Virus record (IMG/VR): IMGVR_UViG_3300024288_000002
Span: 1-55,001 of that record
DNA from: a virus
Taxonomy: Duplodnaviria; Caudoviricetes
Strand: one strand, 5' to 3'
Length of the DNA: 55,001 nt
Each line of letters begins with the position of its first letter. Position 1 is the first letter of the stretch. Below are positions 43,878-47,399 of the stretch, piece after piece. The translations under genes were made by a program, and so were the position numbers. A model generated the notes under the pieces. The model searched no databases. It worked only from the letters and a program-made list of their open reading frames with translations, and had not been told where the DNA came from.

Positions 43878-43925
43878 AAAAAGGGGCCGACCAAGCCTAG
43901 CCGCCTGCTAGACCTGGCCGACCCC
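43878..43925 (-). terminator. Intrinsic terminator closing the ncRNA cluster
   Basis: GGGGTCGGCCAGG...CTTGGTCGGCCCC stem followed by TTTTT on the minus strand. Confidence 0.7.
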
Positions 43926-43987
43926 TCCTTCCTCGGTGCTGCGCCATCACCCGCGCACCCCATTCACCCTTCAGTAAAGTCCTAGCG

Positions 43988-44084
43988 TGGAGATGGTAGG
44001 AATCGAACCTACACCTTCGAAGAGAGGTCAACTTGGCGCCTTCCGACCCGCACTTCGATGCTCGTACCTTCGAGCTACATCCCC
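43988..44084 (-). ncRNA. tRNA-like RNA 1 (Ala-type acceptor, anticodon arm extended by about 24 nt)
   Basis: Acceptor GGGGATG/CATCTCC-A; D arm GCTC/GAGC; T arm GTAGG-TTCGATT-CCTAC. Confidence 0.8.
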
Positions 44085-44255
44085 TTGAAGGACCGGCAGT
44101 TCACTACGACTCCATCGTAATGCTTACCGGTCCTGTCTTACCTAAATTCGGCCTAACCCCTACCGACATGCGCCCTTTAACGTGGTGACCTCTCGCCCTC
44201 CATATCGGTCTGTTTCACCCGACTCTGCCAGGCTAGCGTACTTCCCCACGACGTG

Positions 44256-44768
44256 CTATCCGAACAGCTCGTGAATGTCGTTCCGTGTGGTCGGCTTATC
44301 GCCGGAGACGAGCCAGTTCACGAACTCGTCGTACGTGTACACGCTGCCACGAGGACCGGTCGTGTAGAACTTGTCGGAGATCACGATGGCCGCGTAGGTG
44401 TACATCGTGTCCGAACCGGTGAAGCCCTTCCGGAACCTAAGAACGGTTCCGTCGCCCCATCCGTTCGGACCGAAGTCCGCGATCAGGCCGAGCTTGTCTG
44501 CGACGGCCTTCTCCATTGCACGCTCACGACGGATCGCCGCGACCTTGTCGTCAACGTCGTAGTTGTCGGTCACTTTTACGGTTTCCTTTCGACCATAGAG
44601 CGCTTCGAACAGTTGTTGAGTTGCTGCCACGTCGGTACGACTGTACGCCTTCATCAGGCGCTCTTCGATCTTGTCGTACATAGGCTCGTGCCTGACGTAG
44701 TTTCCGTCTTTGTCGTACACGGGCTCACGTCCAACGTAGAACCCGTCGATGAAGTTTCCGTCGATCAC
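44256..44768 (-). CDS. Hypothetical protein
   Basis: AAGGAG RBS; high-GC codon bias; 'YTYAAI...FYTTG' motif. Confidence 0.7.
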   Translation of the reverse strand: MIDGNFIDGFYVGREPVYDKDGNYVRHEPMYDKIEERLMKAYSRTDVAATQQLFEALYGRKETVKVTDNYDVDDKVAAIRRERAMEKAVADKLGLIADFGPNGWGDGTVLRFRKGFTGSDTMYTYAAIVISDKFYTTGPRGSVYTYDEFVNWLVSGDKPTTRNDIHELFG

Positions 44769-44793
44769 GTCTACTCCTTGATGGTGAAGGTCT

Positions 44794-45197
44794 GGCCCTA
44801 ACGGATCGTACGCTTCTCAGTCTCCCACGAACGGATCTCAGCGGCTTTTGAGCTACTCCCCATTCTGTCCCAGTGGTTTCGCGACTCTACGTCCCCGTTA
44901 GGGCCTCGCCTCTTCATGATCCCTCGATTCCTACTCGTCCGAAGGTCCCTTACTATCCGTTGACATAGCTGCAAACTCTACGTTCGATGCAGATACAACG
45001 GCCTCGTTCAGGGTCCAAGGCTTTCAGTCACCAAGGGCCTTGCTTCATCCATCACCCGCGTCAGCCATTGCTGCGTACGGGTGGCAGCAGCTTTATAATG
45101 GACCTGACAAACCATTACGGGCGAACTCGTTTTGTCGGAACGCATACCTGGTCGTCATGCTCCCGGAACCAATTCGTCGTACGTTTTGCCATTGCCG
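44794..45197 (-). ncRNA. Candidate large structured ncRNA region
   Basis: About 400 nt without a credible ORF, with a series of nested hairpins (e.g. 44794-44804 pairing with 44895-44905). Confidence 0.5.
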
Positions 45198-45270
45198 AGT
45201 CCTAGGTGGGAATCGAACCCACAATCTTCCAATCCGAAAAGGACGCATTCACCAGAATGCTTCTAGGAAC
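45198..45270 (-). ncRNA. tRNA-like RNA 2 (collapsed anticodon stem)
   Basis: Acceptor TCCTAG/CTAGGA; D arm GCAT/ATGC; T arm GTGGG-TTCGATT-CCCAC. Confidence 0.7.
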
Positions 45271-45301
45271 CAATTCTGCCCCATCGTGTGAGGGCAGAAG
45301 C

Positions 45302-45478
45302 CTAACCCTTGAGCGTCCAGCCCATGATGGCGCAGGCACCCTCGGCCAGCTCGCGCTTGTCGTCCTCGGTCAGCGCCTTGAGCTCCTTCTGGAAGTCGAC
45401 GAGCGGACGCTTGGCCGTGCCCGCGTTGAAGTAGCCGGCGATGGCACTGGTCTGAGACTTCTCGTTCACGTTCGGCAT
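45302..45478 (-). CDS. Small hypothetical protein
   Basis: AGGAG RBS before ATG at 45478. Confidence 0.65.
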   Translation of the reverse strand: MPNVNEKSQTSAIAGYFNAGTAKRPLVDFQKELKALTEDDKRELAEGACAIMGWTLKG

Positions 45479-45623
45479 GTTATCTCCTGATGAGGGGGAT
45501 TTATAAAGCGGCACAGCCTACAGTCGTGGCTTAGCGTTTTGGGCATACACTGTCGTAGGCTGTGCTCGTGGATCCGGCCCAATTCGATCGGGCACCCTCA
45601 CGGCGTGTTCGGATCCTACCTTG

Positions 45624-46184
45624 TTACTCGGCTTCGACAACCGGAGTCGCATCGGGAGAAGCGGCAGCCGGTACAGCGGCCTTAGCAGCCGCCTTCTTGG
45701 CCCGCTCGTCCTTGGAAGCCGCGACGCGAGTGTTCTTCGCGTCCCACCACCCCAGACCCTCTTCGGGCTTGATGTACCAGGCGTAGCCCTCGATCTCGTG
45801 GGTCGGGAACGGGTTCCGAGCACCCTCACCCTGGTTGTTCTTGATGTACGAGTACACCACCTGGGGCGGAACGACCTTGTTCAGGTGCGTTCCGAGGATC
45901 TTCGCGAACTCGACCGGCTTCACGTACCCCTCGGGGGCCTTCGTCCGAGGCGTTGCGGTGCTGGCCTTCGCCGGCTTCGCTGCATTGGTCTTCACGGCCT
46001 CCGCGGGAACCTCGTCGGTGTCGTCCGGCACGTCCACGTCGAGGTTGGCGTCGTCGTTGACTTCCGCGTCGAGAGCGTCCTCGCCGGTGCCCTCGATGTC
46101 GCCATCGTTGACCTGCTCGGTTGCTACGGCGCCGTCGGTCGACTTGACTTCGGTGTCGTCGAAGTTTGGAGTTGTCATGGTCAT
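45624..46184 (-). CDS. Putative DNA-binding protein with acidic N-terminus
   Basis: HTH-like 'KPVEFAKIL...PPQVVYSYIKN'; basic C-terminal tail; follows promoter copy 3. Confidence 0.65.
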   Translation of the reverse strand: MTMTTPNFDDTEVKSTDGAVATEQVNDGDIEGTGEDALDAEVNDDANLDVDVPDDTDEVPAEAVKTNAAKPAKASTATPRTKAPEGYVKPVEFAKILGTHLNKVVPPQVVYSYIKNNQGEGARNPFPTHEIEGYAWYIKPEEGLGWWDAKNTRVAASKDERAKKAAAKAAVPAAASPDATPVVEAE

Positions 46185-46227
46185 CGTGTTGCCTTTCTGG
46201 TAAGCTTTTGTATTGCCTTCTACTTTT

Positions 46228-46258
46228 ATTATACAGGTTGTGCTGCTTGGACTGCAAG
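46228..46258 (-). promoter_or_regulatory. Conserved leftward promoter, copy 3
   Basis: CTTGCAGTC-N16-TATAAT. Confidence 0.7.
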
Positions 46259-46301
46259 AGGGATCTTGAAAATTGTTTTGGGGCTCTTTTCTCGGCCCTC
46301 G

Positions 46302-46401
46302 CTTGCCCGTAAGGACTTGAACCTTACTCCGTCAGCTCTGCCTAGCAAATGCGCCGGGTGATCGGTGACGTGTCCTGATGCCTAAAATACAGGCGGGCAA
46401 G
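46302..46401 (-). ncRNA. tRNA-like RNA 3 (divergent cloverleaf)
   Basis: Terminal stem CTTGCCC/GGGCAAG; CCTG/CAGG hairpin; CGTCA/TGACG arm; T arm GTAAGG-TTCAAGT-CCTTAC. Confidence 0.6.
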
Positions 46402-46408
46402 TATTCAG

Positions 46409-46858
46409 TTAGATGCCGTGCTGTTCGGGCTGGAAGACGAATGCCTCGTTAGCGTCGGCTGCCAGACCTTCCTTGACGGCGTCGGCGATCTTGTCGAGCT
46501 GATCGTCGGTCGTATCCTTCTCGACCATGTTGAACTTCATCCCCGGCTCCCGATGCCCTGCCTCAGGCCTCGTGAGGAACGTTGGGCCATCCGTCGGAGT
46601 GCGCGGAAGGTCCGGGATCGGTCGTGAAGCGACATCCCCGTTGTCCGTGTCGATCAGGTCGACGGTTCGCGTCTGCTCGATCCCGTCGCCGGGCTCCCGC
46701 ATCTGCATAGCCATCATCACGGTTTCCCAGCGGGTCTCGTCGTCGGCGTCCATCTCAGCTGCCCGAGCCTTGTCGAGGTCCATACCAGGGTAGGTGGCCT
46801 CGGTGTACTCGACGTCAGTGACGACCCGCACGGTGTCGATGATTCGGAACGTTTTCAC
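46409..46858 (-). CDS. Hypothetical acidic protein
   Basis: GGAG RBS; high-GC codon bias. Confidence 0.65.
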   Translation of the reverse strand: MKTFRIIDTVRVVTDVEYTEATYPGMDLDKARAAEMDADDETRWETVMMAMQMREPGDGIEQTRTVDLIDTDNGDVASRPIPDLPRTPTDGPTFLTRPEAGHREPGMKFNMVEKDTTDDQLDKIADAVKEGLAADANEAFVFQPEQHGI

Positions 46859-46952
46859 TTGTCATCTCCAGGTTTGACGTTAACAAGCAAGAGAACAGTC
46901 ACAAGCTGTAGCTTCCTGTTACGCTGTGGCTATTCTCTTGCTTGCTAATTCA

Positions 46953-46984
46953 ATTATACGCTGGACATACCTCGCGACTACAAG
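46953..46984 (-). promoter_or_regulatory. Conserved leftward promoter, copy 4
   Basis: CTTGTAGTC-N17-TATAAT. Confidence 0.75.
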
Positions 46985-47319
46985 GTGTCTCTTTGAGGGC
47001 TATTAAATGTAGTCATGGTTCTTAGCCTTGTGCATGCGACGAGCCTGTTGCCTAGTAAGAATCGGATGCCAACCAGCAACGAACTTGAGAAAGAGGCAGG
47101 CGCACGTCCACCCAGTACAAAAGGCGGTGACTATGATCATCCACTCAGGCATCTGAGTACTCCCCAATCCAACCAGCGTCAGGGTGACGCAACTGCTTCG
47201 GGTCACCAGGAATAATCGGAACGGTTTTGTTCCACTTGCCCTTGATCGTGGTGTCGATGATGTCGATCACGTTACGGAGCTCATCGATGGTAACTCCGAA
47301 GTGCTTGATCTTTGCCACG

Positions 47320-47399
47320 AGGGGATGAAAGGAATCGAACCTCTATATACCGTGCAGCAGCCAGTAAGCACGGGCGCTCTACCATTGAGCTACATCCCC
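47320..47399 (-). ncRNA. tRNA-like RNA 4 (anticodon arm extended by about 8 nt)
   Basis: Acceptor GGGGATG/CATCCCC; D arm GCTC-AATGGTA-GAGC; T arm AGAGG-TTCGATT-CCTTT. Confidence 0.8.

Follow-up and report, generated by a model that had tools for sequence, protein, structure and literature searches.

The IMG/VR virus record IMGVR_UViG_3300024288_000002 (Caudoviricetes), a stretch of 55,001 nucleotides (nt) to which we refer in its entirety as the window, carries four transfer RNA (tRNA)-like elements on its minus strand, located at 47320-47399 (element 1), 43988-44084 (element 2), 45198-45269 (element 3) and 46302-46401 (element 4). Our analysis supports the view that these are former tRNA genes that do not decode, and with a probability of about one half we infer from sequence comparison that they have been kept as cis-acting modules for ribonuclease (RNase) P and 3'-end processing in leftward operons. 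The elements would be transcribed within polycistronic messenger RNAs (mRNAs), host RNase P would cut at the 5' end of each acceptor stem, and the host machinery for tRNA 3' ends, with RNase Z or else RNase E and trimming before CCA is added, would cut at or just past the discriminator. Such cuts would separate cistrons and provide the neighbouring mRNAs with defined ends, the product in relatives of the phage typically being a short leader of 25-30 nt with a strong ribosome-binding site. The minihelix of acceptor stem and T arm is what RNase P, RNase Z and the CCA-adding enzyme recognise; because processing enzymes read only this half of the molecule, the anticodon arm would be free to drift, to collapse or to grow until the D and T stems are about 90 nt apart. 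A CCA-adding enzyme was not found in the phage record.

Structure of the four elements

Scanned with Rfam at the gathering thresholds, the window yields exactly three matches, all of them to the tRNA family RF00005 (gathering score 29 bits), on the minus strand and over the full model (positions 1-71). They correspond to element 1 (55 bits, E 3.6e-9), element 2 (51 bits, E 4.5e-8) and element 3 (36 bits, E 6.3e-4); our own core covariance model R1, described below, gives 68 bits for element 1 and 74 bits for element 2. Element 4 is matched neither at the gathering threshold nor in a relaxed Rfam scan of the region and reaches only 8.9 bits with R1; it is recognised by its T arm and an acceptor stem paired at 7/7 positions. 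The four minus-strand cloverleaves reported in an earlier note on this DNA are thus all present, and the Rfam check proposed there returned three of them as tRNA matches over the full model and left element 4 unmatched.

In the minimum free energy (MFE) folds of elements 1-3, acceptor, D and T arms are normal. In element 1, the Rfam alignment places 16 nt in the anticodon loop where the model has seven, and the MFE fold shows the anticodon arm rebuilt as a stem of six base pairs (bp) with a 12-nt loop, while acceptor stem, D arm and U73 are identical to those of host-type tRNA-Gly(UCC). Element 2, which carries G3.U70 and A73, has 31 letters aligned against six model positions in the anticodon loop, and a hairpin of about 42 nt stands in place of the anticodon arm in its MFE fold. 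Element 3 is the collapsed member of the set, with a 6-bp acceptor stem and a 6-bp D hairpin with a TGGT loop; its anticodon stem contains non-standard pairs in the Rfam alignment, and the region folds into a 3-4-bp stem with a short loop by MFE and into a 3-bp stem with a 10-nt loop by inspection. The most degenerate member, element 4, combines a 7-8-bp acceptor stem and a 5-6-bp T stem with a TTCAAGT T loop, a weak D-like hairpin and a long irregular arm replacing the anticodon arm. Alignments and folds therefore bear out the description of three lengthened anticodon arms and one collapsed arm given in the earlier note. The MFE z-scores of the four elements are modest (-1.9 to -2.5).

Decoding capacity

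Canonical anticodon arms were defined by a 5-bp stem with at least four pairs, a 7-nt loop, U33, R37 and the right place in the molecule. None of the four elements in the window has such an arm, as had been claimed before, and a single one of the 42 elements catalogued in the window and its relatives (see below) passes, spuriously, by reusing its D stem, as opposed to 12 of 13 annotated tRNAs of the phages D29 and T4 that served as controls. ARAGORN, another check suggested at the outset, gave one call in the window, which takes 47319-47399 as tRNA-Lys(ctt). We rejected this alternative fold of element 1 as an artefact because the stem of the element is homologous to the anticodon stem of host tRNA-Gly, contradicting the register chosen by ARAGORN, which moreover works only with mismatches in the stem and a long variable arm. 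The orthologue of element 1 in the closest relative (contig L004) has no ARAGORN call.

Real decoding tRNAs, made functional by a short anticodon-loop intron, an alternative fold or an expanded loop, could be advocated on the basis of the Lys call, of the anticodons that ARAGORN gives for ten elements in relatives, and of element 2, whose first seven loop bases can be taken by eye for a loop containing U33 and R37, with the insert coming after it. Most elements with a canonical D arm (class A, see below) nevertheless lack U33 after the 5' anticodon-stem strand, which leaves no consistent intron at position 37/38. Neither group I introns nor any other intron or ribozyme family were found in the window at the Rfam gathering thresholds, in the region 43000-48500 at E<=10 or in 11 related loci at E<=0.5, and the inserts measure 9-70 nt. 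Together with 0 valid passes among 42 elements in the arm test, this largely refutes decoding, which we regard as hardly credible.

A family of elements in related contigs

A helicase search returned one relative in IMG/VR, contig L004 (78% identity), and an alignment of the protein encoded at 45624-46184 with its L004 homologue led to 12 metagenome loci, among them the L004 contig once more; a related-locus search using the protein encoded at 44256-44768 returned no loci. Above the gathering threshold, 11 Rfam tRNA matches of 71-140 nt are found in these loci, L004 has two, and on the entire L004 contig tRNA matches are confined to this cluster. The core model R1, built from 14 elements, gave 41 matches at E<=1 in the window and 12 loci (137 kb), 37 of them full-length and all on the gene strand. 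From R1 and a heuristic scan for a T arm with a complementary acceptor stem, we compiled a hand-curated catalogue of 42 elements in the window and ten loci, including two weak members and one doubtful one.

Eleven related contigs carry between one and six elements each, always on the gene strand and in the same syntenic slots. With gene families based on homology, and slots assigned by us from scans, families and spacings, the conserved order is F16/slot 1/slot 2/F27 or F24/slot 3/promoter/F0/(F17)/slot 4/F7/slot 5/F6-F1-F4-F9-helicase. In the window, slots 1, 3, 4 and 5 are filled by elements 1, 4, 3 and 2, respectively, and slot 2 is empty. No locus spanning slot 3 or slot 4 lacks an element there (10/10 related loci for slot 3), and the acceptor sequence of element 4 recurs in L007:114-203. 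The slot-5 element of L004 is weak (20.7 bits with R1). Upstream of the slot-2 elements of relatives, a conserved mini open reading frame (ORF) of 5-6 codons (Met-Arg-Pro/Ala-x-Asn-stop) with its own Shine-Dalgarno (SD) sequence is followed by a hairpin (L004 ~5196-5213, L014 ~4908, L015 ~1973, L016 ~4956, L008 ~5404); it is absent from the window.

Conservation of the core and variability of the anticodon arm

Covariation was assessed on an alignment of 40 distinct rows (A3), fitted to the model and not including element 4. Standard pairing is seen in 95.3% of the 551 cells of the acceptor, D and T stems; both partners vary in 14 of the 16 pairs, and double-sided changes account for 157 cells. 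The covariation score amounts to 0.583 versus 0.147 after shuffling (0/500 shuffles as high), and pairing falls to 42-57% when the partner is moved by one to three columns. Being fitted to the model, the alignment is tilted towards the structure; the complete occupancy of slots speaks against an effect of ascertainment bias alone. The collection of homologs that the earlier note had called for, and a covariation check of the kind proposed there, turned out in its favour, as the acceptor, D and T stems covary strongly in the relatives. All 33 full-length distinct rows have the T loop TTCGAnn (element 4 with TTCAAGT is outside this set). The stretch from D to T stem, 22-23 nt in canonical class I tRNAs, ranges from 20 to 91 nt with a median of 44 and comprises at least 25 nt in 29/33 rows.

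Orthologous pairs illustrate this distribution of constraint. Between element 1 and L004:4612-4695, the 5' part is identical at 23/24 and the 3' part at 18/25 positions; the middle is unalignable, its 47% identity equalling the shuffled mean (224/500 shuffles as high). In element 3 and L004:6874-6944, the middle is 70% identical (2/500 shuffles as high), and compensatory changes can be read by eye in the acceptor, D and short stems. Inner parts are mostly unrelated in sequence between elements, with three exceptions: a 22-nt match (95%) between L008:5748 and L015:3392, which lie in different slots and genomes, a 15-nt match between L015:2065 and L016:7052, and the near-identical loci L011 and L013. 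Identical cores of 16-18 nt recur within and between genomes. Class-A members have a canonical D arm with GG, and class-B members are without the D-loop GG. Universally kept are the acceptor stem, the T arm, G1-C72 and a host-like 3' context, which would correspond to the half read by processing enzymes, and the lost half appears to be the part read by ribosomes and most synthetases.

Position and 3' flanks

Fourteen of the 42 elements end 12-31 nt before an SD sequence and a start codon, the distance being 24-31 nt for ten of them, and 14/42 have their 5' end no more than 60 nt after the stop of a conserved gene. An element followed by F7 is present in L008, L015, L016, L145 and L146; the distance from element end to F7 start is +27, +27 and +26 in the first three (20-27 nt in relatives). 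The window has four putative transcription units with one element each. Elements 2, 3 and 4 follow the last conserved gene of their unit, and element 1 is situated between a conserved gene and two small ORFs. The distance from the preceding stop codon to the element is 7 nt for element 4 (gene 46409-46858), 32 nt for element 3 (gene 45302-45478) and 74 nt for element 1; element 2 is separated by 171 nt from the F7 gene 44256-44768 and is followed, about 60 nt further on, by a terminator. A 57-codon ORF with a GTG start and without SD (47145-47318, minus strand) begins 1 nt past the discriminator of element 1 and would be left nearly leaderless if a cut occurred at the 3' end of the element. 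The L004 counterpart of element 1 is followed by an SD sequence and an ATG at +15.

The discriminator is followed by C in 38/41 elements and by CG in 35/41 (background CG 7.9%), and CCA is encoded in 0/41. For comparison, 69 distinct host tRNA genes were taken from 120 matched loci (at least 120 exist). They have C after the discriminator in 67/69 cases, including 40/42 of those without CCA, and CG in 11 of those 42. The elements copy the 3' context of host tRNA genes. A lead for the C at +1 is offered by mycobacterial RNase E, which cleaves immediately 5' of C (PMC10641625).

G3.U70 together with A73 is present in 3/41 distinct elements, all of them in slot 5 and with otherwise differing acceptor sequences: element 2, L008:7728-7833 and L013:2050-2161. 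We take this combination to be the identity set of alanyl-tRNA synthetase. Element 2 carries this alanine-acceptor signature and may be charged, as far as can be predicted.

Origin from host-type tRNA

The first 24 nt of element 1 are identical (24/24) to actinobacterial tRNA-Gly(tcc) from Micrococcales and other Actinobacteria. This sequence matches at least 120 stretches of actinobacterial genomes, and 8/8 loci inspected among the matches listed are tRNA-Gly(tcc). In comparison with four host tRNA-Gly genes, element 1 has a homologous anticodon stem in which one compensatory change has occurred, and only the loop is rebuilt. Judged by its sequence, element 1 thus descends from actinobacterial tRNA-Gly(UCC). 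Most other members differ from it in having A73 (26/41) rather than U73.

A helicase alignment (A7) reaches 80 IMG/VR loci comprising 1.2 Mb, in which R1 found 12 matches at E<=0.01, ten of them in four closer relatives with 43-49% identity. L144 has six tRNAs, all of which (6/6) are canonical by ARAGORN and the arm test. L150 (43% identity) has two tRNAs with the anticodon CTA (6058-6130 and 6217-6288), one of which passes the arm test, and in addition one remodelled element after the F0 homologue. L145 and L146 (47-49% identity) each contain one remodelled element directly upstream of the F7 homologue. The CTA tRNAs of L150 are of the amber-suppressor type, labelled Pyl by ARAGORN, which hints at stop-codon suppression or recoding. 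Ordinary tRNAs interleaved with small genes are probably the ancestral state, of which none are left in the subclade of the window. The earlier note had named ordinary tRNAs as homologs plus unconstrained decay of the copies as an outcome that would speak against non-decoding mimics: distant relatives do have ordinary tRNAs, yet the copies in the window are not decaying freely.

Weighing of the alternatives

Among the roles proposed in the earlier note, RNase P/RNase Z signals fit best because the elements have intercistronic positions on the gene strand, 14/42 precede an SD sequence and a start codon, and the C after the discriminator is host-like. A decoy for anticodon nucleases fits poorly since the anticodon loop, their usual target, is missing. 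Several points weigh against processing as the whole explanation. The four elements in the window are not of the type residing 25-30 nt before an SD sequence; they follow genes or, in the case of element 1, precede a GTG ORF by 1 nt. A canonical D arm with GG, for which a pure processing signal would have no need, is retained in class-A members, a hint that the entire L shape may be recognised. Host tRNA genes (11/42) do not account for the almost invariant G at +2. One insert type (L008:5748/L015:3392) is conserved across slots and so is the collapsed arm of element 3 between orthologues, and some arms may therefore have a function of their own. With slot 2 empty in the window, the element appears dispensable for that gene. 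Finally, the covariation alignment is model-fitted, the element catalogue stems partly from a heuristic scanner, and the elements are known here from DNA sequence alone.

Some of these points lead to a reading that we consider possible, though clearly not the most probable one, namely that stable excised RNAs of about 70-140 nt act in trans on host factors. Such tRNA-shaped small RNAs could be decoys or sponges for binders of the acceptor end or the elbow (3'-end toxins, tRNA-sensing defences, synthetases, EF-Tu), or they could be tRNA scaffolds presenting fast-evolving hairpins, element 2 perhaps being alanine-charged. D arm and T loop, and with them the whole L shape, are kept in class-A members, several copies per genome lie downstream of promoter-like sites, the hypervariable arms always fold as hairpins and one insert type is common to different slots; the confinement of G3.U70/A73 to three slot-5 elements is the most intriguing detail pointing at a trans-acting or chargeable RNA. 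On the other hand, the elements are without the anticodon loop at which most known tRNA-directed nucleases cut, the D-loop GG is lacking in class-B members, the inserts are mostly unrelated in sequence, and the tight spacing to downstream start codons is unexpected for a free-standing RNA gene. The longest antisense targets of the four inner arms in the phage measure 9-10 nt, and 157-195 of 200 shuffles did as well. Action in trans and processing are compatible and not exclusive. A combination of both is conceivable as a modular RNA toolkit, in which tRNA-shaped modules would insulate the leftward cistrons, excised CCA-tailed bodies would act in trans through fast-changing hairpins of up to about 90 nt in place of the anticodon arm, and element 2 would be alanylated and non-decoding; we regard this as rather doubtful.

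That the elements are decaying, functionless pseudogenes left over from a tRNA set no longer needed is improbable. This idea is in line with the ordinary tRNAs of distant relatives (6/6 in L144, at least one canonical CTA tRNA in L150), the badly degenerate element 4, the empty slot 2 of the window and the weak slot-5 element of L004. It conflicts with stems that remain paired through many double-sided changes, with slots 3 and 4 being filled in every covering locus, and with an identity of 72-96% in the cores, as against a randomised middle part in element 1 and a neighbouring F0 protein that has diverged to 63-78%; free decay would not spare 16 bp and the T loop in about 40 copies. Conserved slots, strong covariation and the result of the arm test (one spurious pass in 42 versus 12/13) uphold the original proposal of non-decoding mimics as opposed to random decay. 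Still further from probable, in our view, is a role in recombination or integration, with the tRNA-like cores being attP-like sites or hot spots of cassette exchange between co-infecting phages. The gene content between slots does vary (F27 vs F24; F17 and the slot 2 module present or absent), and the recurrence of identical 16-18-nt cores within and between genomes would suit exchange, which may be a side effect of the repeats. No tyrosine or serine integrase was found in the record (~85% complete), the covariation reflects selection on RNA pairing and not on DNA sequence, and the strict gene-strand orientation points to a role at the RNA level.

Genomic surroundings

The window is a whole IMG/VR virus record, linear and from soil, with a CheckV completeness of about 85%. 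Structural genes occupy the plus strand up to about 23 kb and are followed by replication and small genes on the minus strand. Terminase and helicase are just 30-36% identical to those of the closest isolates, phages of Arthrobacter, Microbacterium and Micrococcus, which makes an actinobacterial host and an actinophage-like lineage likely. Comparison of the region with 50,697 phage records gave no match at the DNA level in near and distant modes, nor did protein F0 match any of them. In Micrococcus phage Kurnik, neither a comparable region nor an annotated tRNA is present within the 21.5 kb examined. Among public sequencing runs, no RNA run is listed for the stretch, and three DNA rows contain all or part of it, one of them perhaps being the sample of origin.

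Family F0 (186 amino acids, 45624-46184, minus strand) is encoded between slots 3 and 4 and has an acidic N-terminus, a conserved core and a Lys/Ala-rich tail. In alignments A1 and A4 (9 sequences) it shows 63-78% identity, and it belongs to no Pfam or PHROG family. Of ten local proteins compared with Pfam and PHROGs, a single one had matches, to phrog_1342 and phrog_33706, two families of unknown function; the match to phrog_1342 (E 6e-8) is that of F7 (44256-44768, minus strand). Upstream of the F7 gene, a non-coding leader of about 330 nt (44770-45100, minus strand) is preceded by a TATAAA-type box and shares conserved patches with L004 6960-7228. A GGGGAAG sequence (44241-44247, minus strand) 8 nt past the stop of the F7 gene equals the 5' acceptor strand of L008:7728, resembles that of L004:7790 and, over a distance of 260 nt, can pair at 6/7 positions with the 3' acceptor strand of element 2. 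It could represent the vestige of another slot-5 element or allow an alternative pairing.

According to the earlier note, the elements lie downstream of conserved leftward promoters. This is plausible, as the motif TTGYAGTC is enriched in the window (12 copies vs 3.8 expected), with five minus-strand copies within 43.5-53.1 kb, and holds at the level of consensus matches. A promoter scan paired two copies as TAGTCA-16-TATAAT, and TATAAT was read by eye downstream of two more. The site at 47709-47739 (minus strand; TAGTCA-16-TATAAT, 10/12 matches to the consensus), with TTGTAGTC located at 47732-47739 by motif scan, is situated upstream of gene 47474-47683 and element 1. At 46953-46983 (minus strand), TTGTAGTC (46976-46983) is followed by TATAAT (46953-46958, by eye) and then by a strong hairpin (46870-46960, minus strand; z -6.6, 0/200 shuffles as stable), gene 46409-46858 and element 4, in the same order as in L004. 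A third site at 46228-46257 (minus strand), composed of TTGCAGTC (46250-46257) and TATAAT (46228-46233, by eye), resides directly downstream of element 4 and ahead of the F0 gene. A 22-nt stretch around its motif is identical in L004/L005, and an exact search with the 22-nt pattern returned the same relative only. At a distance of 0-10 nt from their 5' ends, slot-1 elements and element 4 have the motif CTAACTRMATA (window 47400-47415 and 46402-46415, minus strand; L004 4590-4611, L014 4600-4621, L015 1668-1687), which could be a -10-like box or a leader determinant.

The unit of gene 44256-44768 and element 2 is closed by an intrinsic terminator-like hairpin (43882-43926, minus strand) with a 20-pair stem followed by a T run; the surrounding stretch 43875-43990 (minus strand) has a fold z of -6.3 (0/200 shuffles as stable). 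Structured non-coding sequence is also present at 45495-45640 (minus strand; z -3.5, 0/200 shuffles as stable). Two hairpins 3' of the F0 gene recur in L004, the second stem with compensatory changes.

Further away, the window contains genes for the synthesis of preQ0 (7-deazaguanine) between 28377 and 31893 on the minus strand, encoding GTP cyclohydrolase I (28377-29036), PTPS/QueD (29383-30057), a QueE-like radical-SAM protein (30191-30931) and QueC (30931-31893). As in other phages, this set suggests DNA modification; the product of the neighbouring gene 27266-28009 has no Pfam match. Among the replication genes, a 236-amino-acid protein (37454-38164, minus strand) bears a peptidase inhibitor I36 domain (E 1.7e-12).

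Implications

If the elements are processing signals, they would provide a clear case in a bacterial virus of the tRNA punctuation/t-element principle (see below) and show how a phage decouples cistrons through host tRNA enzymes. Odd or undetermined tRNA calls in annotated actinophage genomes would then have an explanation, and actinobacterial synthetic biology would gain natural insulator parts. The clade would offer an evolutionary series, from ordinary tRNAs in distant relatives via mixed sets in intermediate ones to a fully non-decoding set, its structure held by selection, in the subclade of the window. Should the excised bodies act in trans or element 2 be charged, a new class of phage small RNA would emerge. 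The modular toolkit, if true, would amount to nature's own version of synthetic tRNA scaffolds and tRNA-guide RNA arrays; our searches of open-access papers brought up no such toolkit in a bacterial virus.

Comparison with known systems

The tRNA-like domain of transfer-messenger RNA (tmRNA), the bacterial Y RNA-like YrlA and the 3' tRNA-like structures of plant viruses are non-decoding tRNA mimics that keep acceptor/T-arm features, and tmRNA uses G3.U70 for alanylation. Rfam gave no match to any of these families above gathering. We rejected tmRNA as an identity for the elements, as tmRNA_permuted scored 20.5 bits against a gathering score of 47 and tmRNA in L008 15.9 against 47, and ARAGORN reported no tmRNA in the window or its relatives. 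Element 2 has G3.U70 in common with tmRNA, yet the elements contain neither a tag ORF nor pseudoknots. YrlA was likewise rejected, since the elements end at the acceptor stem and are not permuted as in YrlA.

Ordinary phage tRNAs such as those of D29, T4 and L144 share the cloverleaf core and the co-orientation with genes, and those of L144 have CG after the discriminator in 4/6 cases, as in the elements. They differ in their canonical arm, present in 12/13 controls and 6/6 L144 tRNAs and validly in none of the elements. Such genes are probably the ancestors of the elements. Phage T4 encodes two stable RNAs, rnaC and rnaD (species 1 and 2), within its tRNA cluster, with unknown function according to the record annotation. 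Like the elements, rnaC (139 nt) ends in a T arm and an acceptor-like stem around a large interior. It reaches only 13.5 bits with R1, however, and T4 has one such RNA beside eight real tRNAs, whereas our set is interleaved with protein genes. The eight viral TMERs of MHV68 are tRNA-like elements, each serving as a tRNase Z processing handle for the RNA immediately downstream (PMC4838037). They belong to an animal herpesvirus, are transcribed by RNA polymerase III and carry precursor microRNA hairpins as cargo instead of mRNAs (PMC4838037).

Searches of open-access full texts brought up no description of remodelled tRNA-like elements in phage operons, which falls short of proving that none exists. 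Still, the earlier note went too far in speaking of an undescribed system, because the t-elements of plant mitochondria are a well-known closest analogue (PMC1920247). These t-elements are non-canonical tRNA-like structures that are taken to direct RNase P/Z cleavage at the 5' or 3' ends of mRNAs, have the conserved T arm GGTTCRANYCC and give rise to excised pieces with non-encoded C/CA (PMC1920247). By sequence and position, the phage elements likewise combine a conserved T arm and acceptor stem with a non-canonical cloverleaf at putative mRNA borders. In contrast to the organellar t-elements, they form a viral set of 4-6 members per 4-kb operon region in conserved syntenic slots, their anticodon-arm expansions are much larger, and an origin from a host-type tRNA-Gly(UCC) is traceable, at least for element 1.

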